Positions 4,549 through 33,764 of a DNA stretch of 64,000 nucleotides are shown piece by piece (the first letter of the stretch is position 1; every line of letters starts with the position of its first letter). The translations under genes were made by a program, and so were the position numbers. The stretch is taken from the NCBI GenBank assembly GCA_045546995.1, contig JAZQDW010000008.1, positions 3,253 through 67,252 of the forward strand, in the 5' to 3' direction. The stretch comes from Eubacteriales bacterium. GTDB lineage: Bacteria; Bacillota; Clostridia; Oscillospirales; QAKW01. The notes below the pieces were generated by a model. That model saw only the letters and a list, made by a program, of their open reading frames with translations, was not told the DNA's origin and did not search any database.

Positions 4549-5414
4549 TTCCCTTCACCGCCTTTCAAAATTTCCATAATTTTTTCCAGCTCTGCCACGC
4601 TGTGGTAGCTGATCTCGATCTTACCGCTGTTTTTGGGAGTATGTCGGATCTGTACCTTGCTGCCCACGTGTTCACGGGCGGCGCGTTCCATCTCCTGCAG
4701 CGCCAGGGTGACCTCTCGGTCAAAGACGGGCAACTCCTTGGCGGGGGCCAGCGCTTTTTTAACCAGCCCCTCGGTTTGCCGTACCGTCAGTCCGTCGGAA
4801 ATGATGCGATTGGCCAGCATCAGCATTTTTTCTGCATCCAGCGGCATCAAGGCTTTGGCGTGGCCGGTGGATAGCTCGCCCCCTGCTACGAAATCCATGA
4901 TCTGCTCGGGCAGGGACAACAGCCGCAGCGCATTGGCGATGGCAGGACGGGACTTGCCCACCGAACGGGCGATCTCCTCCTGGGTCATGTGATACACGTC
5001 CTGCAGGGAGCGATAGCCGCGCGCTTCTTCAATGGGATTGAGATCCTCACGTTGCAGGTTTTCAATCAGCGCGATCTCCATATTTTGTTGTTTGGTAACG
5101 GTGCGGATGACGGCGGGCACCTCCTCTACCCCGGCGATGCGGCAGGCGCGCCAACGGCGCTCACCGGCAATGATGCGATAGCGGTCCCCCTCCAGGGGTT
5201 CCACCAGCAGGGGTTGGATCAGGCCGTGTTGCTCGATGGAGGCGGCAAGGGCCTGCAGTGCTTCTTCGTCAAAGTGTTTACGGGGTTGGTCCCGATTGGG
5301 CTCGATATCGCTGATCCGCAGGGTGCGGATGCCTTCGTCAGCGCGGGGCTGTTCGATGATGAAATCGTTATCTTCCCAAATGGCGTCCATTCGTTTTCCA
5401 AGACCTTTTTTCAT
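4545..5414 (-). CDS. parB: chromosome partitioning protein ParB/Spo0J
   Basis: 289 aa. ParB box GLIQPLLV...IIAGERRWRA, an HTH region, and a start that overlaps the end of parA. Confidence 0.9.
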   Translation of the reverse strand: MKKGLGKRMDAIWEDNDFIIEQPRADEGIRTLRISDIEPNRDQPRKHFDEEALQALAASIEQHGLIQPLLVEPLEGDRYRIIAGERRWRACRIAGVEEVPAVIRTVTKQQNMEIALIENLQREDLNPIEEARGYRSLQDVYHMTQEEIARSVGKSRPAIANALRLLSLPEQIMDFVAGGELSTGHAKALMPLDAEKMLMLANRIISDGLTVRQTEGLVKKALAPAKELPVFDREVTLALQEMERAAREHVGSKVQIRHTPKNSGKIEISYHSVAELEKIMEILKGGEGK

Positions 5415-8517: not shown

Positions 8518-9999
8518 TCAGTCGTTATCCTGCTCTTGGAGAGGCAGGGTGATGGTAACGGTGGTGCCTTCTCCCAGCGTGCTTTGGATATCCAGGGTGC
8601 CACCGTGCTTTTTGACGATCTCGTCGGCCACGCCCAGGCCGATACCGCTACCACGCTTTTGCGAGTGGCCTTTATAAAACATCTGCTTGATGAAGGGCAG
8701 ATCCTCCGGCGAGATGCCCTCACCGAAATCCTGCACCGAGATGTAGACCGCCTGCTCGTCACAGGTGACGGCGGTCAGGATCTTACCGTCCGAGGCGGAA
8801 TGCTTGATGGCGTTGTCAATGATATTGAAAAATACCTGCTTAAGGCGGTTTTTGTCGCCCAACAGATGGACCTCATCCAGCTCGGGCGTGTATTCGATGG
8901 TCACACCCTCGATGCGGCCGCGCTCCATCATCATAAATACCGTGTCCTCAAATTCCGCCACCACGTTCATCGGCCCGACCATCAGCTTAAAGCGGCCGTT
9001 TTGGATGCGGGAGGTATCCAACAGCTCCTCCACCAGTCGGCTCAGCCGTTCGGTCTCTTTATAAATGACCTCGATGCCCCGTCGGGTGGTGGGATCCATC
9101 CCCTCGCTCTGGGTGGCGATCATCGTCTCACTCCAGCCGCGGATGGCGGTCAGCGGGGTGCGAAGCTCGTGGGAGACGGAGGAGATAAAGTCGTTTTTGA
9201 TTTTTTCGCTCTCGCCCAACTCCTGCGCCATGGCGTTGATGGTGGTACACAGATCACCCAGCTCGTCATCCTTGTAATAATGTTCGATGCGGGTGGTCAT
9301 ATTACCCTTGGCAATGGCCTTGGCCGTGTCGGAGATCTGCGCCACGGGCACCACGATGGATTTGATAAAATACAGACCGCTGAAGGCGGTGATGACGATA
9401 ACGGCCAGACCGATGAGAACCGCCGCCCCATACAGAGTGTATAAATAGCGATCGGTAGGTTGTAGGGCGGTCAGCAGACGCACCGTGCCCCGTACGTTGC
9501 CGTAGTTGTCCAGTAGCGGAGCGCTGTAGCTCATTACCTTTTCACCGGTGTTGACCAGATCCCCTACCCAATCCCCGGCCGTGCCCTGCCGCGCGGCGGC
9601 AAGATCGGGGGTGGCCACCATATCGTTGAGGGGGAAGCCCGAGGAGGAAACGGCCACCTTGCCGGTCAGATCGGAGATCTGGATCTCACAGAGTTCCTTG
9701 TCCTCAAAATCATCCACCATATCGTGGGCGGCGCCGGTAAAGGAGTCGGCGGAAATGTAATTTGAATAGTAATGTTCGACGTTGTCGGCATCGGCGCGCA
9801 GACGGCCCCGTACCAGATTGTAATAGGAACTGCGGGCAAAGGCGCAGAACAACAATACCAGCAAAATGTCCGCGATCAGTATGGTGCCGAAAATGTTATA
9901 CAGCCAACGGCGTGTGATGCCCGAAAAGAAGGTGCGCTTTAAACTGCGCAGCATACGGCGAAAATCCTTCCACAGGCGTGAAAACAGGCGTGGTTTCAT
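8518..9999 (-). CDS. sensor histidine kinase (2 TM, HAMP, HisKA, HATPase_c)
   Basis: 493 aa. H-box SHELRTPLTAI, N-box NIIDNAIKH, and G-boxes DFGEGI / GSGIGLG. Confidence 0.9.
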   Translation of the reverse strand: MKPRLFSRLWKDFRRMLRSLKRTFFSGITRRWLYNIFGTILIADILLVLLFCAFARSSYYNLVRGRLRADADNVEHYYSNYISADSFTGAAHDMVDDFEDKELCEIQISDLTGKVAVSSSGFPLNDMVATPDLAAARQGTAGDWVGDLVNTGEKVMSYSAPLLDNYGNVRGTVRLLTALQPTDRYLYTLYGAAVLIGLAVIVITAFSGLYFIKSIVVPVAQISDTAKAIAKGNMTTRIEHYYKDDELGDLCTTINAMAQELGESEKIKNDFISSVSHELRTPLTAIRGWSETMIATQSEGMDPTTRRGIEVIYKETERLSRLVEELLDTSRIQNGRFKLMVGPMNVVAEFEDTVFMMMERGRIEGVTIEYTPELDEVHLLGDKNRLKQVFFNIIDNAIKHSASDGKILTAVTCDEQAVYISVQDFGEGISPEDLPFIKQMFYKGHSQKRGSGIGLGVADEIVKKHGGTLDIQSTLGEGTTVTITLPLQEQDND

Positions 10000-18682: not shown

Positions 18683-20788
18683 ATGTACGAAAATCACAAA
18701 ATTTTTAAAACTGTGTTTGCGGGCAGAGAGCTGGTCGTTGAGACCGGTAAGTTTGCCCAGCTGTCCAACGGCAGCGCCCTGATCCGTTACGGTAACTGCG
18801 TGGTGTTGGCCAACGCCACCGCCGCCGCCAAGCCCCGTGACGGTATCGATTTCTTCCCCTTAAGCGTTGATTTTGAGGAGAGAATGTATGCGGCCGGTAA
18901 GATCCCCGGCGGCTTCCTCAAGAGAGAGGGTCGCCCCAGCGAGAAGGCCATTCTGTCCTCCCGCGTCATCGACCGTTCCATCCGTCCCCTCTTCCCCAAG
19001 GATATGAGAAACGACGTCAGCGTACACCTGACCGTTATGAGCACCGATGACGACGCCATTCCCGAGATCGTGGGTATGGTGGGCGCTTCCATCGCGCTGT
19101 CCATTTCCGACATTCCCTTCGCCGGACCCATTTCCGGTATCAGCGTGGGTCTGATCGACGGTGAGTACGTATTCAACCCCGACGCCGCCCAGAGAGAGGC
19201 CTCTCAGATGGCCGTTACCGTTGCTTCCTCCGCCCAGAAGGTCACCATGATCGAGGCCGGCGCCAACGAGGTCGAAGAGGACGTGATGATCGAGGGTATT
19301 ATGGCCGGTCATGCCGAAAACGCCAAGATGGTCGAGTTTATCAACACCATCGTTGCCGAGATCGGTAAAGAAAAATTCACCTTCGAGTCCTGCGCTGTCA
19401 GCGAGGAGCTTTACGCCGCCGTTGCCGCCGCCGTGGGCGAGGATATCAAGGTTGCCTTTGACAACGCCGACAAGATCACCCGTGACAATCTGACCGCCGA
19501 GGCCTGCAAAAAGTGCCACGAGCTGCTGGATGAGCAGTATCCCGAGGATGGCGCTATGATCGACGAGTGCCTGTACAAGCTGCAGAAGATGACCGTTCGT
19601 CATTGGCTCAGCGAGGAGGGCAAGCGTGTGGACGGCCGTGGCATCAACGATATGCGTGAGCTGTATGCCGAGACCGACATTCTGCCCACCGTACACGGCT
19701 CCGGTTTGTTTGCCAGAGGTAAGACCCAGGTGCTCAGCATCGCCACGCTGGGTATGATCTCCGAGGAGCAGATTCTGGACGGTCTGGACAACGAGACCTC
19801 CAAGAGATATATCCATCATTACAATATGCCCGGTTTCACCACCGGTGAGGCCAAGCCCGTTCGTTCCCCCGGCCGTCGTGAGATCGGTCACGGCGCACTG
19901 GCCGAGCGCGCTCTGTTGCCCGTTATTCCCTCCGTTGAGGAGTTCCCCTATACCATCCGTGTGGTCAGCGACGTTCTGACCTCCAACGGCTCCACCTCTC
20001 AGGGCTCTATCTGCGGCTCTACGCTGGCTCTGATGGACGCCGGTGTTCCGATCAAGGCGCCCGTTGCCGGTATCTCCTGTGGTCTGATCACCCGTGAGGA
20101 CGGCAGCTTTATGACCATGGTCGACATTCAGGGTATCGAGGACTTCTTCGGCGATATGGACTTTAAGGTCGCCGGTACCAAGAAGGGTATCACCGCCATT
20201 CAGATGGACATCAAGGTGGACGGTCTGACCCGTGAGATCATTACCGAGGCCATTCATAAGACCCGTGACGCCAGATATCACATTTTGGACAACGTCATCG
20301 CTCCCGTGATTTCCGAGCCTCGCGCCGACGTTAAGGAGTGCGCTCCCAAGGTCATCACCATGAAGATCGATCCCGAAAAGATCCGTGAGGTCATCGGTTC
20401 CGGCGGTAAGGTCATCCAGAAGATCGTTGCCGACACCGGCGCCAAGATCGACATCGAGGACGACGGCAGCGTATTCATCGCCGCCACCGAAAAGGCTTCC
20501 GCCGACGCCGCCAAGGCCATCATCGACGGCATCGTATTCGAGCCCGAGGTTGGCCAGATCTACAAGGCCACCGTCGTGAAGATTATGGAATTCGGCGCAT
20601 TCGTTGAGTTTGCGCCCGGCAAACAGGGTCTGGTACACGTTTCCAAGCTGGACACCAAGCGTGTAGAGCGCGTGGAGGATCTGCTCACCGAGGGTGACGA
20701 GATCATGGTCAAGTTTATGGAGGTCGACTCCAAGGGCCGTTACAACCTGTCCCGCAAGGACGCTCTCCTGGAAATGCAGGGCAAATAA
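18683..20788 (+). CDS. pnp: polynucleotide phosphorylase
   Basis: 701 aa. Two RNase PH domains plus KH and S1 (…GSGGKVIQKI…, …GQIYKATVVKIMEFGAFVEF…). The rpsO-pnp synteny is classic. Confidence 0.97.
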   Translation: MYENHKIFKTVFAGRELVVETGKFAQLSNGSALIRYGNCVVLANATAAAKPRDGIDFFPLSVDFEERMYAAGKIPGGFLKREGRPSEKAILSSRVIDRSIRPLFPKDMRNDVSVHLTVMSTDDDAIPEIVGMVGASIALSISDIPFAGPISGISVGLIDGEYVFNPDAAQREASQMAVTVASSAQKVTMIEAGANEVEEDVMIEGIMAGHAENAKMVEFINTIVAEIGKEKFTFESCAVSEELYAAVAAAVGEDIKVAFDNADKITRDNLTAEACKKCHELLDEQYPEDGAMIDECLYKLQKMTVRHWLSEEGKRVDGRGINDMRELYAETDILPTVHGSGLFARGKTQVLSIATLGMISEEQILDGLDNETSKRYIHHYNMPGFTTGEAKPVRSPGRREIGHGALAERALLPVIPSVEEFPYTIRVVSDVLTSNGSTSQGSICGSTLALMDAGVPIKAPVAGISCGLITREDGSFMTMVDIQGIEDFFGDMDFKVAGTKKGITAIQMDIKVDGLTREIITEAIHKTRDARYHILDNVIAPVISEPRADVKECAPKVITMKIDPEKIREVIGSGGKVIQKIVADTGAKIDIEDDGSVFIAATEKASADAAKAIIDGIVFEPEVGQIYKATVVKIMEFGAFVEFAPGKQGLVHVSKLDTKRVERVEDLLTEGDEIMVKFMEVDSKGRYNLSRKDALLEMQGK

Positions 20789-20789
20789 T

Positions 20790-20873
20790 CCGGCCGGCAA
20801 AAAGCACGACCGACCGCGAAAATGAATCATAAAAGGGAAGAATGTTTCATCACAAACGTTCTTCCCTTTCTGC
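20790..20873 (+). repeat. 84-bp direct repeat, copy 1 (includes the pnp terminator hairpin)
   Basis: CCGGCCGGCAAAAAGCACGACC...ATCATAAAAGGGAAGAA.GTTTCA.CACAA.CGT.CTTCCCTTT recurs at 21004-21086. Confidence 0.85.
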
Positions 20874-20880
20874 TTTTATT
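20832..20880 (+). terminator. pnp terminator; copy 1 of a recurring hairpin family
   Basis: AAAGGGAAGAATGTTT-catcac-AAACGTTCTTCCCTTT (16-bp stem including one G-U pair) followed by a T-rich tract. Confidence 0.75.
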
Positions 20881-21003
20881 GTTCTACAAAAAGCAGGTTG
20901 TTTTGCCTGCGGCAAACTTTTCGCTTTCCGTCGCTCCGCCCTCTACCGTACAAACGTACGCCGACGAGGTCGGATCGGCGAAATCTGCCGCCCTTTTTCC
21001 CAG

Positions 21004-21086
21004 CCGGCCGGCAAAAAGCACGACCCACCGAGAAAACAAATCATAAAAGGGAAGAACGTTTCAACACAAGCGTCCTTCCCTTTTTT
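21004..21086 (+). repeat. 84-bp direct repeat, copy 2 (its 3' part is the outer end of the left long inverted repeat)
   Basis: Hand alignment with 20790-20873 shows a few substitutions and one 1-nt indel. Confidence 0.85.
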
Positions 21087-21240
21087 AGTGAAATTTTTGC
21101 ACCTTTGGTGCAAAAGTGAAATACTGCCTTGCGGCAGTGTGAAATCCGCCATTTTACGCGGCGCACAAAACAGCGGATGAAATGATCTCGCCACCCAAGC
21201 GGCTCGATCGTTTCGGAAACCTTTTGCCCTGCGGGCAAAA
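21045..21240. repeat. left arm of an approximately 197-bp imperfect inverted repeat (IR-L)
   Basis: The reverse complement of 22044-22241 aligns along the whole length. It consists of a hairpin-family copy, then GTGAAAT-plus-hairpin modules, then ...GATGAAATGATCTCGCCACCCAAGCGGCTCGATCGTTTCGGAAACCTTTTGCC... Confidence 0.9.
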
Positions 21241-21256
21241 ACAAACAGGATTTCGC

Positions 21257-21391
21257 TCATTCGTTGGTCAGTTCGTCCTTTTCTGCGTTGATATACAGTT
21301 CTTCGCAACGGCGCTGTGCCTCGATCAGCAGGTTGATAGCCTCCTCGGCGGCATTCATCATAATAAAATACATTTGCTTGTAATCTTCCAT
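21257..21391 (-). CDS. small hypothetical protein (44 aa), below the ORF-track size cut-off
   Basis: Hand translation gives MEDYKQMYFIMMNAAEEAINLLIEAQRRCEELYINAEKDELTNE. A GGAGGA sits about 5 nt upstream of the ATG. It is predicted all-helical and is divergent from the RHH gene. Confidence 0.45.
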   Translation of the reverse strand: MEDYKQMYFIMMNAAEEAINLLIEAQRRCEELYINAEKDELTNE

Positions 21392-21500
21392 ATCGTCCTC
21401 CAAATAGATATAAATTAAACACATTATGTGTTCAATTTGTAATTATAACACATTTTTTATCTAAAATAAACACAAATTATGTTTATTGAGGAGGCAAATT
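21392..21500. promoter_or_regulatory. AT-rich divergent promoter/operator region with three AACACA-containing repeats
   Basis: AACACATTATGTGTT (palindrome, 21418-21432), ATAACACATT (about 21445-21454) and TAAACACAAATTATGTTTA (palindrome, about 21467-21485). This layout is typical of RHH operators. Confidence 0.45.
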
Positions 21501-21671
21501 ATGGCGATCAAAAGCTTGTCGATTCGTATAGAAGAAGAGCTGTTGCATAAACTGCACGTGGTATCCGATTACGAGGCTCGTTCTGCCAATTCTCAAATTT
21601 TGGTTTTGATTCGGGATTGCGTGGAGCGGTACGAGGCAAAGCACGGCAAAATCGAACTGGATAAAAAATAA
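21501..21671 (+). CDS. ribbon-helix-helix (Arc/CopG-like) DNA-binding protein
   Basis: 56 aa from MAIKSLSIRIEEELLHKLHVVSDYEARSANSQILVLIRDCVERYEAKHG. The pattern fits a beta-strand followed by two helices. GAGGAGG lies 7 nt upstream of ATG 21501. The ORF-track start at 21486 is an extension. Confidence 0.7.
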   Translation: MAIKSLSIRIEEELLHKLHVVSDYEARSANSQILVLIRDCVERYEAKHGKIELDKK

Positions 21672-21700
21672 CCGTTGATCTTTTTCGAAACCAACTTAAC

Positions 21701-21741
21701 AAAAAAGGTGTTTGTCCTTTTGCAGGGCAAACACCTTTTTT
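21701..21741 (+). terminator. terminator of the RHH gene
   Basis: GGTGTTTG...CAAACACC hairpin followed by TTTTTT. Confidence 0.7.
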
Positions 21742-22032
21742 GTAACCGAAAACCACGCGATCGTCGCGTGGCCCGATAGAGCTTTGGCGATGAGCAGGAA
21801 AAAGAACGGTCTGAATAAGGAGCAGAGGGCAACTTGTGCCTCGCCTCCCTCTGACGAGGGAGGTGGATTTTTGCGTAGCAAAAAGACGGAGGGAGAGAGG
21901 ATAAGGGCAGAATGAGAAGTTTCGTTATCTCTCCCTCAGTCCTCGCTGACGCTCGGACAGCTCCCTCGTCAGAGGGAGCCAAGGCAGGCTGTGCAGCCCA
22001 TTTATGGGCAGCCAGTAATCAATGAACGGCCT
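21741..22032 (+). repeat. 292-bp hairpin-rich interspersed element, copy A
   Basis: Hand alignment with 33473-33764 shows about 11 substitutions and no indels (about 96% identity). Internal hairpins include CCACGCGA-tcg-TCGCGTGG, CTCCCTC-tgac-GAGGGAG, GAGGGAGAGAGGATAA...TTATCTCTCCCTC and CTCCCTC-gtca-GAGGGAG. Confidence 0.9.
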
Positions 22033-22043
22033 GTTTCAATCAG

Positions 22044-22241
22044 CTTTTGCCGGCGGGCAAAAGGTTTCCGAAACGATCGAGCCGCTTGGGTGGCGAGATC
22101 ATTTCATCCGCTGTTTTGTGCGCCGCGTAAAATAGCGGATTTCACACTGCCGCAAGGCAGTATTTCACTTTTGCGGCCATCGCCGCAAAAACTTCACTAA
22201 AAAAAGGGAAGAGCACTTGTGATGAAGCGTCCTTCCCTTTT
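22044..22241. repeat. right arm of the approximately 197-bp inverted repeat (IR-R), ending in hairpin-family copy 3
   Basis: It is the reverse complement of IR-L with scattered substitutions, including paired stem substitutions that preserve a hairpin. Confidence 0.9.
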
Positions 22242-22344
22242 CTAATGAATAGTGAATCGTTATGGATGGTTTTGATGACAATTTACATTGCTTTAAGGAT
22301 TATTATGTGATATTATAAGACCAAAAGCAAGGAGGGAACGCTTT

Positions 22345-23673
22345 ATGTCATCTTATAAACGCAGAAAAACACCGGGCAATACCGATTGGTTTGTCCGTGA
22401 CCGTTTTGGAATGTTCATCCACTTCGGGCTGTATGCCATGCCGGCGCGTCACGAGTGGGTCAAGTCCAGAGAATTTATTTCCGAGGAAAAATACGACGTA
22501 TATTTCCGTAATTTCAATCCCGATCTTTTTGATGCCAAAGAATGGGCGCGCACGGCCAAGGCCGCGGGTATGAAATACTGCGTGTTGACCACCAAGCATC
22601 ACGAAGGCTTTTGCCTGTTTGACACCAAGTACACCGATTATAAGATCACCAATACACCCTTTGGTCGGGATCTGGTGCGGGAGTACGTGGAGGCCTTCCG
22701 CGCCGAGGGGCTGAAGGTGGGATTTTACTATTCCCTCCTTGACTGGCATCATCCCGATTACGTCATCGACGCTCGCCATCCACTGCGCGGTCATCCTGAC
22801 GGTGCGGCACTGGATGCAGGGCGGGATATGAAGAAATATGCAAAGTATATGCGCGATCAGGTAAGAGAGTTGATGACGAACTACGGCAAGATCGACATAT
22901 TGTGGATGGACTTCACCCCCGCCGCAAAACCCAATATGCCCGACTGGATGCGTAACGGCGGCGCCAAGAATAAGGAGATGTGGGAGAGCGAGGCGCTCAT
23001 TAAGATGGTGCGCGAGCTACAGCCCGGCATCATCATCAACAATCGCGCCGATCTGGAACAGGATCTCTGGACCCCCGAGCAGTATCAGCCCCGTGAGTGG
23101 CAACGCCATAAAGAGACGGGGGAACTGGTCACTTGGGAGGCCGGCCAGACCTTTTCCGGCTCCTGGGGATACTACCGTGACGAGCACAGTTGGAAGAGCC
23201 CCGAAATGCTGATCGATATGCTTACCAACACCGTTTCCTGTGGCGGCAACCTCATTATGAACGTGGGTCCCACCGCCCGTGGTTATTTTGACCACCGCGC
23301 CGTAGAAGCACTGGGGGCTTACGGCGAGTGGATGAAGTACAACAGTCGCTCCATCTACGGTTGCACCATGGCAGAGCCCGGCTTCCAGGCGCCCGAGGGC
23401 ACCGTGCTGACCCAAAGCGAGGATGAAAAACGGCTCTATATCCATCTGCAGACCTATCCGTTCGGCACGCTGCGCTTGCACGGCGTTGCCAAAGAAGACG
23501 TTGAATACGTCTGCTTCCTCTCCGACGGTAGCGAGATCACCTATCAGGATCGTCTGATGAACGACGGTCTGACGGTGGATGCATTCGGAACAGAGGAGAA
23601 GAGCATTTTGCTAAAGCTTCCCACCATCCCACCCAAGGGGTTGCGGCCGGTCATTGAGGTTATTTTGAAATAG
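22345..23673 (+). CDS. alpha-L-fucosidase (GH29)
   Basis: 442 aa. Shows WF..DRFGMFIHFGLYA...KYCVLTTKHHEGFCLFDT...YYSLLDWHHPDY, a typical GH29 catalytic domain. Confidence 0.85.
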   Translation: MSSYKRRKTPGNTDWFVRDRFGMFIHFGLYAMPARHEWVKSREFISEEKYDVYFRNFNPDLFDAKEWARTAKAAGMKYCVLTTKHHEGFCLFDTKYTDYKITNTPFGRDLVREYVEAFRAEGLKVGFYYSLLDWHHPDYVIDARHPLRGHPDGAALDAGRDMKKYAKYMRDQVRELMTNYGKIDILWMDFTPAAKPNMPDWMRNGGAKNKEMWESEALIKMVRELQPGIIINNRADLEQDLWTPEQYQPREWQRHKETGELVTWEAGQTFSGSWGYYRDEHSWKSPEMLIDMLTNTVSCGGNLIMNVGPTARGYFDHRAVEALGAYGEWMKYNSRSIYGCTMAEPGFQAPEGTVLTQSEDEKRLYIHLQTYPFGTLRLHGVAKEDVEYVCFLSDGSEITYQDRLMNDGLTVDAFGTEEKSILLKLPTIPPKGLRPVIEVILK

Positions 23674-23678
23674 CAAAG

Positions 23679-23720
23679 AAAAAAGGAAGAATGTTCGTGA
23701 TGAAACATTCTTCCTTTTTT
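23679..23720. terminator. bidirectional terminator; copy 4 of the hairpin family
   Basis: AAAAAAGGAAGAATGTT-cgtgatga-AACATTCTTCCTTTTTT is a perfect stem lying between convergent genes. Confidence 0.75.
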
Positions 23721-23730
23721 GATGATGGAT

Positions 23731-24507
23731 TTAGTATTTCAGTCGCTCTGCGGGGATTTCGGGGTACAGCTGGACGTTGTTACCGCCGTCCACGATCAGT
23801 TCGGCGCCGGTGGTATTGCGGCTTTGGTCGCTGCCCATATACCAGGCGGCGTTGGCCACGTCCTCAAACTCGGCGATATCCCCGATGGGGGTGTAATTGG
23901 ACAGAGCGTTGCGGCAATTATTATAGTTGGTTTCCCAACGCACGGTTTTGATCATACCGGGAAGTACGCAGTTGACACGGATGCCGTATTTGCCCAGATC
24001 CACTGCCAGCGCGCGGCTCAGGGACAGGATGCCGCCCTTGGAACAGCTGTAGGCGGCGCGGGAGGGAATGGCGCGATAGGCGGTGTTGGAATTGATAAAC
24101 ACGATGGCGCCCTTGCCCTTTTCCTTCATTTGCAGGGCGGCCTCACGGGCCAGCATAAAGTTCCAACCGATGTTGGTGTTGATCACGTCCATAAAGTCTT
24201 TGATATCAACGCTTAAGGTGTCCTGCGCAATGCCCAGATTGGCGGCGTTGCACACCAAGGTGTCCAGCAGATAGCCCTTCTGGCGAATGTCGGCAAAGGC
24301 GGCCTTTACCTGCGCTTCGTTATAGCCCTCCAGCTCGTAGCCGTAGCAATTCCGGCCCGTTTCGGCGGCCAATTTGGCGGCGGCCTCTTCGGCATCCGAT
24401 CGGCGACGGGAAGAGATAAATACGTCGTAGCCCTCCACGGCAAACCGTTTGGCAATGGCATATCCGGTGCCGTTGGTGGCGCCGGTAACAAGTACGCAAG
24501 GATTCAT
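23731..24507 (-). CDS. SDR-family oxidoreductase
   Basis: 258 aa with TGATNGTGYA (cofactor motif), NAA and YSCSK (YxxxK). Confidence 0.85.
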   Translation of the reverse strand: MNPCVLVTGATNGTGYAIAKRFAVEGYDVFISSRRRSDAEEAAAKLAAETGRNCYGYELEGYNEAQVKAAFADIRQKGYLLDTLVCNAANLGIAQDTLSVDIKDFMDVINTNIGWNFMLAREAALQMKEKGKGAIVFINSNTAYRAIPSRAAYSCSKGGILSLSRALAVDLGKYGIRVNCVLPGMIKTVRWETNYNNCRNALSNYTPIGDIAEFEDVANAAWYMGSDQSRNTTGAELIVDGGNNVQLYPEIPAERLKY

Positions 24508-33437: not shown

Positions 33438-33472
33438 AAAAGAGTGGACGGCTGTACCGTCCACTCTTTTGT
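33436..33472 (+). terminator. rlmH terminator
   Basis: AGAGTGGACGG-ctgta-CCGTCCACTCT followed by TTT. Confidence 0.8.
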
Positions 33473-33764
33473 TGTAACCGAAAACCACGCGATCGTCGCG
33501 TGGCCCGATAGAGCTTTAGCGATGAGCAGGAAAAAGAACGGTCTAAAGAAGGAGCGGAGGGCAACTTGTGCCTCGCCTCCCTCTGACGAGGGAGGTGGAT
33601 TTTTGCGTAGCAAAAAGACGGAGGGAGAGAGGATAGGGGCAGAATGGGAAGTTTCGTTATCTCTCCCTCAGTCCTCGCTGACGCTCGGACAGCTCCCTCG
33701 TCAGAGGGAGCCAAGGCAGGCTGTGCAGCCCATTTATGAGCAGCTAGTAATCAATGCACGGCTG
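33473..33764 (+). repeat. 292-bp hairpin-rich interspersed element, copy B
   Basis: Same orientation as copy A and about 96% identical to it. It starts immediately after a terminator T-run, as copy A does. Confidence 0.9.

Follow-up and report, generated by a model that had tools for sequence, protein, structure and literature searches.

The pnp–fucosidase spacer of a Eubacteriales bacterium: a probable recombination-shaped mosaic of Gut-1-class RNA units, repeats and a ribbon-helix-helix gene pair

The spacer described here lies between pnp, the gene for polynucleotide phosphorylase (PNPase), and an alpha-L-fucosidase gene in a Eubacteriales bacterium of the Clostridia (assembly GCA_045546995.1, contig JAZQDW010000008.1). 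It is part of a stretch of 64,000 nucleotides (nt) that was analyzed as a whole and is termed the window; all coordinates without another label are window positions. The spacer carries two long inverted repeat arms around a pair of divergent small genes, one of which encodes a ribbon-helix-helix (RHH) protein. On balance, it is best regarded as a recombination-shaped mosaic of independent chromosomal elements and not as one mobile unit. Such a mosaic would juxtapose two paralogous Gut-1-class RNA units, the RHH gene pair, a structured repeat of 292 nt and duplicated terminators, with indel, duplication and gene conversion having shaped the variable region 3′ of pnp. A sequence-only reading of the same DNA had taken the inverted repeats as the bounds of a non-autonomous cassette or of the footprint of a larger element. 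The repeats and small open reading frames (ORFs) that it listed are all borne out in the sequence, with chance excluded. The cassette is not, as four related contigs (L001–L004, 96% identical to the window) lack positions 21741–23728 and keep the left arm and the genes.

The inverted repeat, previously read as about 197 bp long and confirmed here, pairs 21040–21240 (left arm, + strand) with 22045–22246 (right arm, − strand) and has a core of 130 nt at 96% identity. Identity between the arms varies by segment: it is highest in the central 102 nt (99%), followed by the end hairpin (92%), and lower in the hairpin (78%) and in stem 1 (75%). Both arms align to Rfam family RF01706 (Gut-1) over the full model, positions 1–77, including all three stems. 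In a search of the 64 kb, the left arm scores 46.3 bits (21086–21188, +; E-value 6e-6) and the right arm 41.5 bits (22096–22199, −; E-value 1e-4) against a gathering threshold of 50 bits. These scores are depressed because the third hairpin holds an insertion of about 23 nt, and the arms are therefore termed divergent Gut-1-class units rather than curated members of the family. The motif in the arms consists of four single-stranded (G)UGAAAU repeats with three hairpins between them, and a scan for this pattern and its hairpins recovers the same clusters in the window and none in shuffled sequence. Each arm unit extends over about 200 nt and comprises a terminator-like hairpin, the Gut-1 motif, a tail with a fourth stem and a small end hairpin. 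In the left arm the first of these is hairpin H2 and the last lies at 21216–21240, while the corresponding outer hairpin of the right arm is H3 (22202–22241).

The folded form of these units appears to have been maintained during evolution. The left arm folds as RNA with a z-score of −7 relative to shuffled sequence. Its orthologue, also 3′ of pnp, is found in the sister lineage or species represented by L125 and L126 (PNPase 97% identical in protein, region 86% identical in DNA), and the L125 copy reaches 55.0 bits, above the gathering score. Among the two window arms, L001, L002 and L125, 9 of 51 base pairs have changed on both sides. Compensatory changes distinguish the L125 copy from the window copy in stems 2, 3 and 4, and stem 1 differs between the two window arms yet remains paired by changes of the same kind. 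On sequence evidence, the arms are Gut-1-class RNA units and not the ends of a mobile element, and both copies may be transcribed. The left unit would be a resident element of the pnp 3′ region, vertically inherited and under structural selection.

The right arm is absent from L001–L004 and from L125. For stem 1, the left arm and L125 are identical in sequence and the right arm differs from them; the outer part of the right arm is therefore older than the species split. The center of the right arm, in turn, has a base in common with the left arm of the window that is missing from L001 and L002, and this center has therefore been converted recently. Judged by such base comparisons, the arms show gene conversion. 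The right unit would thus be an older inverted paralogue in which recent gene conversion has replaced the central 102 nt with sequence of the left unit, with the inverted repeat acting as a substrate for homologous recombination.

It has been proposed instead that 21045–22241 is a mobile cassette or footprint resembling a miniature inverted-repeat transposable element (MITE), with terminal inverted repeats of about 197 bp recognized by a transposase encoded elsewhere. This is very improbable. It would fit the presence of long, good inverted repeats around small cargo without a recombinase, and an s44-RHH module is enclosed by inverted repeats in one further lineage as well. However, the relatives lack only the right third of the supposed cassette together with the fucosidase gene, and not a repeat-bounded unit, which largely refutes the proposal. 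The four contigs are collinear with 19972–21740, retaining pnp, both direct repeats, the left arm, the 44-residue protein gene, the RHH gene and its terminator, and they resume at 23729. In L001, the terminator hairpin after the RHH gene runs straight to the stop codon of a convergent short-chain dehydrogenase (SDR) gene, which this hairpin (21699–21743; bidirectional, inverted repeat I8, 20 nt at 95%) also serves in the related strains. Since 21741–23728 is all that these contigs lack, the inverted repeat does not delimit a moving unit. The empty sites for which the sequence-only reading had suggested looking were not seen either, as the related strains show none matching 21045–22241.

Other evidence points the same way. 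The left arm is orthologous 3′ of pnp in the sister species, where different cargo follows it, and the arms match a known RNA motif and have evolved with compensatory changes. Copies of arms and hairpins were counted over the 64-kb window, which has no arm copies besides the two. The bases just outside the arms, as read from the sequence, show no target-site duplication. The spacer DNA has no match among plasmids and phages, and an ORF survey of the spacer finds no transposase or integrase. Finally, for 30 distinct RHH modules examined with flanks of 700 nt, repeat scores exceed those of controls only in the window and in the single lineage of L118/L120, and 27 of the 30 are without a flanking inverted repeat.

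Flanking repeats were also considered as a general trait of RHH modules. This was rejected, as the direct and inverted repeat scores of 48 distinct modules with 250-nt flanks equal those of controls.

A lineage comprising L113–L122 has a related arrangement. In L118 (3391–4541), an s50-RHH module lies between inverted hairpin arrays of about 100–125 nt that are about 0.9 kb apart and match no Rfam family. Some strains of this lineage have the module inverted compared to others, between the same flanks, and the breakpoints fall within the arms. Neighboring segments occur in at least three arrangements, and there are several other inversions with no invertase gene nearby. Such a pattern resembles the outcome of passive recombination among hairpin repeats.

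Inversion of the enclosed module is possible in the window as well, although it has been seen only in that other lineage. According to this alternative, the arms would flip the module of about 800 bp between them (44-residue protein gene, RHH gene and 292-nt element), perhaps as a phase-variable switch, which is quite unlikely. The two orientations of the homologous s50-RHH module speak for it, as do arms of about 200 nt with a 99% core, which are good substrates for homologous recombination. On the other hand, only one orientation is seen for the species of the window, all close relatives are without the right arm, and no invertase gene is adjacent. The module also has its own divergent promoters, so that flipping would have no obvious regulatory output, and the several different inversions of L113–L122 fit passive recombination better than a dedicated switch.

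The mosaic reading also draws on the repeats between pnp and the left arm. The direct repeat that had been read as duplicating the pnp terminator is present at 20790–20869 and 21004–21083 (both +), with 90% identity over 80 nt. Copy 1 has an orthologue in L125 and includes the pnp terminator hairpin H1 (20832–20869), which is terminator-like with 16 pairs and a T-run. Copy 2 includes H2 (21046–21084) and overlaps the outer end of the left arm. At the position of copy 2, the copy in L125 is older and has diverged (26 nt at 81%, at a spacing of 221), and its hairpin is a different one; the 90% identity in the window is therefore ascribed to homogenization. The 80-bp direct repeat would be an old duplication of the pnp terminator region that was homogenized again in the lineage of the window.

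H1 and H2 belong to a family of terminator-like hairpins of the form AAGGGAAGA-N18-TCTTCCCTT. This family has four copies in the 64 kb, at 20833, 21047, 22204 and 23682, compared to 0.04 expected from shuffles, and all four lie within 3 kb. H1 and H2 have the same orientation, and H3 and H4 the opposite one. H4 (23682–23722), a bidirectional terminator, separates the fucosidase gene from the SDR gene and is an inverted relative of H1. L040 also has it, in a copy 88.6% identical to H1.

Between the two direct-repeat copies lies a conserved non-coding block (20912–21003, +) with three small hairpins, the last of which is terminator-like (20976–20990). This block of about 90–100 nt is near-invariant in the window, L001 (about 950–1035) and L125 (about 9232–9322), and its conservation exceeds that of pnp (86% identical). 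It has no Rfam match and may be another 3′-region RNA element.

Comparison with the sister lineage shows how different the content of this site can be. The window and L125 are homologous from pnp across the direct-repeat region and the Gut-1 unit as far as 21227, a position within the end hairpin. After its Gut-1 unit, L125 has a divergent pair, in which a spacer of 114 bp separates an XRE-type helix-turn-helix (HTH) regulator from a YpsA-like SLOG protein, followed by a fucosidase gene that is 81% identical to that of the window. On each side of the HTH/YpsA-like cassette is a 31-nt copy of the Gut-1 end hairpin, at 9525–9555 and 10638–10668 of L125, and the two copies are direct repeats (84%). 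These look like a duplicated insertion target.

It is conceivable, if unlikely, that two-gene cassettes of a regulator and an effector insert site-specifically into the Gut-1 end hairpin and duplicate it, so that cassettes are exchanged at this site. In favor of such exchange, L125 has its HTH/spacer/YpsA-like cassette at the same position, from the Gut-1 end hairpin to the fucosidase gene, with hairpin repeats at both sides, and the homology between window and L125 breaks within this hairpin. The sequence 3′ of the RHH gene has a weak resemblance to the Gut-1 tail and hairpin, and RHH modules are found at strain-variable junctions elsewhere. Yet the second repeat in the window is marginal, as equally good scores are reached by 2 of 500 shuffles and by 21 of 2,490 genomic windows. 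The 48 distinct RHH modules have no excess of flanking direct repeats over controls, and no recombinase is associated with the RHH module.

The region 3′ of pnp is, as far as the sequences compared indicate, a strain-variable, recombining stretch. PNPase homologues with 93–99% identity were examined, and their downstream content differs. In L128 (9107–9978), a relative with a PNPase 95% identical, pnp is joined almost directly to genes found at or beyond 28.6 kb in the window, with a 57-nt remnant of the SDR gene left. About 7.8 kb, with Gut-1, the RHH pair and the fucosidase, SDR, deacetylase and GFO/ThuA/AraC genes, is therefore variable content.

The fucosidase gene itself (GH29; 22345–23673, +; Pfam PF01120, E-value 6e-86) forms the right boundary of the spacer, as pnp (18683–20788, +; Pfam RNase_PH, PNPase, KH and S1 domains) forms the left. 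It has its own promoter region from about 22270, and homology with other fucosidase loci begins at 22270–22272. The contig L040 shares a fucosidase–H4–SDR block with the window (22272–24507 versus 61–2296 of L040) at 97% identity. The neighboring AraC–ThuA–GFO genes of L040 are only 84% identical and are inverted relative to the window. This suggests, from the sequences, that the block was recently exchanged between lineages.

Several observations weigh against reading the spacer as a mosaic of independent elements. Both arms score below the Gut-1 gathering threshold, no promoter is evident for either Gut-1 copy, and the right copy has no co-oriented gene directly upstream. The L118/L120 lineage also has an s44-RHH module between inverted hairpin arrays, and the arrangement may not be pure coincidence. 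Furthermore, the strain-variable segment of 1,988 bp (21741–23728, with the 292-nt element, the right arm, the fucosidase gene and H4) can be read either as an insertion in the window or as a deletion in the L001 lineage. On the side of insertion, the left end of the segment is the exact left end of the 292-nt element, whose second copy likewise lies directly after a terminator. On the side of deletion, the fucosidase gene of L125 also lies 3′ of pnp and Gut-1, and the right arm is old in its outer part. Deletion is also favored by H3 and H4, which form direct repeats on either side of the fucosidase gene; they would leave the SDR gene, a hairpin and the minus-strand Gut-1 unit as in the convergent pairs found elsewhere. 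A recombination breakpoint inside the SDR gene was tried as a guide to the direction and set aside, as the pattern of single-nucleotide polymorphisms in this gene is a mosaic and uninformative.

The 292-nt repeat, of which one copy (copy A) had been placed in the spacer by the sequence-only reading, is found there and at a second site. As a repeat of 292–300 nt it occupies 21731–22030 and 33463–33762, with 96% identity between the copies. It begins right after the T-run of a terminator at both, and copy A as an element is assigned to 21738–22030 (+). Its core of about 140 nt (21843–21980) keeps three hairpins through compensatory changes and has no significant Rfam match. The core is 77–83% identical to elements in another species (L005, 3581–3705 and 4183–4325; L044–L046), where they lie near an RHH partner gene. 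The repeat is a candidate structured RNA or a candidate small terminator-targeting element.

Gut-1 was described by Weinberg et al. in 2010 from human-gut metagenomes only, with no function, organism or genomic context assigned (PMC2864571). No later literature on it was found. A degenerate pattern scan of GTDB genomes followed by Rfam yields clear copies, at 54–66 bits, in Eubacteriales and Oscillospiraceae metagenome-assembled genomes, and the same pattern has no match in viral contigs. The Gut-1 loci L018, L019, L022, L024, L026, L027, L035 and L125 lie 20–300 nt 3′ of co-oriented genes or a tRNA. Besides pnp, the upstream genes resemble recR, fmt and enolase, as judged by eye from C-terminal peptides. 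The copies often directly follow the terminator of the upstream gene, and convergent plus/minus pairs, 18–115 nt apart, occur at three of seven loci. These features suggest that Gut-1 is a 3′-region element rather than a free-standing small RNA gene. Co-orientation with upstream genes and the presence of downstream terminators at these loci give only indirect support for expression as RNA.

An association of Gut-1 with RHH modules was considered and rejected. Clusters of UGAAAU hairpins are found neither in the 80 metagenome RHH loci returned by a protein scan (L044–L123) nor in the further RHH loci L005–L012.

The gene pair between the arms belongs to two conserved families. As previously read, both small ORFs, of 44 and 56 residues, are real, and they are conserved as divergent genes. 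The longer (21501–21671, +) had been taken for an RHH protein, and the match of its family profile and the names of its homologues indicate that it is probably of the Arc/Mnt type. There are 1,115 homologues, with the best 120 at 75–98% identity in a near-invariant alignment; they come from Oscillibacter, Faecalispora, Butyricicoccus and Oscillospiraceae and are often named “Arc family DNA-binding protein”. Exact-match protein look-ups for the window RHH protein, PNPase and fucosidase were empty, and close homologues were used in their place. Against the PDB, the family profile matches pArc, an engineered Arc construct, at an E-value of 0.0026, Mnt at 0.028 and Arc at 0.6.

The window RHH protein itself scores 15.1 bits with the Pfam family Arc (PF03869), compared to a cut-off of 20.4 bits; many homologues at 75–85% identity carry a precomputed match to this family. 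Arc-like repressor families of PHROGs match it at an E-value of 0.005. In the AlphaFold2 monomer model, which has a mean confidence score (pLDDT) of 67, an extended N-terminus precedes helices at residues 12–23 and 29–48; the strand forms in the dimer only. This monomer model has no significant match in the PDB by Foldseek.

The 44-residue protein (21257–21391, −) is an acidic single-helix protein of the s44 family, and its gene has a GGAGG 5 nt upstream of the ATG. It is 100% conserved in L001–L004. Its family includes 371 representative clusters at an E-value of 1e-3 or lower, with the consensus MPDYKEMYL..A.E.AINILIEAQR.CEELYI. AlphaFold2 models the protein as one long helix (pLDDT 94). Searches of Pfam, NCBIfam, PHROGs and PADLOC return nothing for it, and its family profile has no match in the PDB.

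Across the 80 metagenome loci, the divergent partner gene starts 106–115 bp from the RHH start in nearly every callable case. Three types of partner are found. The first is the helical s44 family of 44–73 residues, in about 30 of the 80 loci; the second is a YAcAr-type SLOG protein of about 112 residues (PF10686); and the third is a SLOG protein of about 148 residues, YpsA-like as judged from sequence. The L125 partner, the only one of the YpsA-like type scanned against Pfam, falls just under the YpsA cut-off. The layout of promoter and palindromes is kept with all three types.

In the window, the genes are separated by an AT-rich, bidirectional control region of 109 bp (21392–21500). The sequence-only reading had noted three AACACA repeats there. 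Their clustering stands and their number is four, within 57 bp (21418–21474), compared to 23 in the whole window; one of them is part of the extended −10 element of the 44-residue protein gene and not an operator. The region contains the palindrome AACACATTATGTGTT (21418–21432; AACACAT.ATGTGTT) and, on the − strand, the TG-extended −10 element TGTTATAAT of the 44-residue protein gene (21442–21450). An imperfect palindrome, ATAAACA-N7-TGTTTAT (21466–21486), adjoins the RHH ribosome-binding site. In 68 unique homologous spacers of about 110 bp, TGNTAYAAT occurs on the partner strand in 32, and in 30 of these it lies at −59 from the RHH ATG. Palindromes, usually TAGATAT..ATATCTA, cluster at −86, just downstream of TGNTAYAAT, and a second imperfect palindrome again adjoins the RHH ribosome-binding site.

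This layout predicts two operators. RHH dimers would bind the palindrome just downstream of the TG-extended −10 element of the 44-residue protein gene, and would also bind the second imperfect palindrome by the ribosome-binding site of the RHH gene. Bound there, the RHH protein would act as a repressor of the partner gene and as a regulator of its own. The two genes most likely form a divergent operon under autoregulation. The sequence-only reading had suggested an autoregulated addiction, partition or regulatory module, and of these the conserved control region argues for the regulatory one; addiction and partition do not hold up, as there is no toxin-like or ParA-like partner.

That the two proteins form a toxin–antitoxin or plasmid-type partition or addiction pair is accordingly hard to credit. 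RHH antitoxins are common, and the window protein has a weak ParD_like match (E-value 0.08). However, the genes are divergent and not co-transcribed, the RHH protein is without a C-terminal toxin-binding extension, and the 44-residue acidic helix matches no toxin family or defense model. A defense-system scan has no matches for the pair. The same RHH protein is paired with SLOG-domain proteins elsewhere, and its family is chromosomal. Close relatives are almost absent from phage and plasmid collections, where the one close match lies on an unannotated 6-kb contig named “Bacteriophage sp.” and the remaining matches, at about 42–44% identity, are phage Arc-like or plasmid-encoded proteins.

RHH modules sit at strain-variable junctions elsewhere. 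In an Oscillibacter-like species, homology between the strains L008 and L010 stops 3 nt after the RHH stop codon (position 5183). At this point, one of the two strains has a block that encodes a large serine recombinase, an HTH protein and a GGGtGRT protein. The 3′ end of the RHH gene is a candidate integration junction.

A broader and improbable proposal has the RHH gene as the invariable half of a cassette, widespread in Oscillospiraceae-like gut Clostridia and so far undescribed, that combines a regulator with a small effector. The near-invariant repressor and its fixed control region of about 110 bp would drive the 44-residue helix or a YAcAr-type or YpsA-like SLOG partner, of which the YpsA-like partners are related to a known cell-division inhibitor (PMC6459960). 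Cassettes at strain-variable junctions would be swapped at the Gut-1 end hairpin, as in L125, or flipped between inverted hairpin arrays at their flanks, as in L118/L120, and the UGAAAU repeats of Gut-1 in the 3′ regions of housekeeping genes would titrate an RNA-binding protein.

The mosaic reading has consequences beyond this locus. Gut-1, an orphan RNA family, is given a defined setting in the 3′ regions of housekeeping genes such as pnp, where convergent pairs are frequent, and this makes expression mapping and protein pull-down feasible. A very conserved and abundant pair of an RHH and a small protein is flagged in gut Clostridia, and its predicted operator layout is directly testable. 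For genome scans, the locus is a caution that long inverted repeats around small genes can be RNA paralogues homogenized by gene conversion. Comparison of related strains separates such elements from mobile ones.

Several features of the spacer resemble known systems. The arms fit the full 77-position model of Gut-1 (RF01706), with its four (G)UGAAAU repeats and three hairpins, and the hosts are likewise Clostridia from gut-type metagenomes. The window units differ in being longer, at about 200 nt, and in having a 5′ terminator-like hairpin, a fourth stem and an end hairpin. As in MITEs and other non-autonomous transposons, long inverted repeats surround a short segment without a transposase. 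Unlike these, the window has no target-site duplication, no multiple copies (within the 64 kb) and no empty site at the repeat boundaries, and its arms belong to a structured-RNA family. Hairpin repeats of the repetitive extragenic palindromic (REP) and bacterial interspersed mosaic element (BIME) type are closer in some respects. Terminator-like hairpins are locally duplicated in both orientations, mosaic identity points to gene conversion, and the other lineage is inversion-polymorphic between hairpin arrays. Nevertheless, the hairpin family of the window has only four copies, all within 3 kb, and is not dispersed in the window.

The gene pair can be compared with two further systems. It has in common with type II toxin–antitoxin systems of the ParD and CopG/RelB type a small RHH DNA-binding protein that is probably autoregulated, but its genes are divergent, with no toxin-like partner and no toxin-binding tail. 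The Arc and Mnt repressors of the immI region of phage P22 are also small RHH proteins with a GRS-NS-I/L signature, and the window family profile matches Mnt and, more weakly, Arc. They likewise have divergent promoters in a spacer of about 100 bp with palindromic sites. In contrast to Arc and Mnt, the window family is chromosomal, very highly conserved and widespread in Oscillospiraceae-like Clostridia, and its partner is a 44-residue helix or a SLOG protein instead of an antirepressor.

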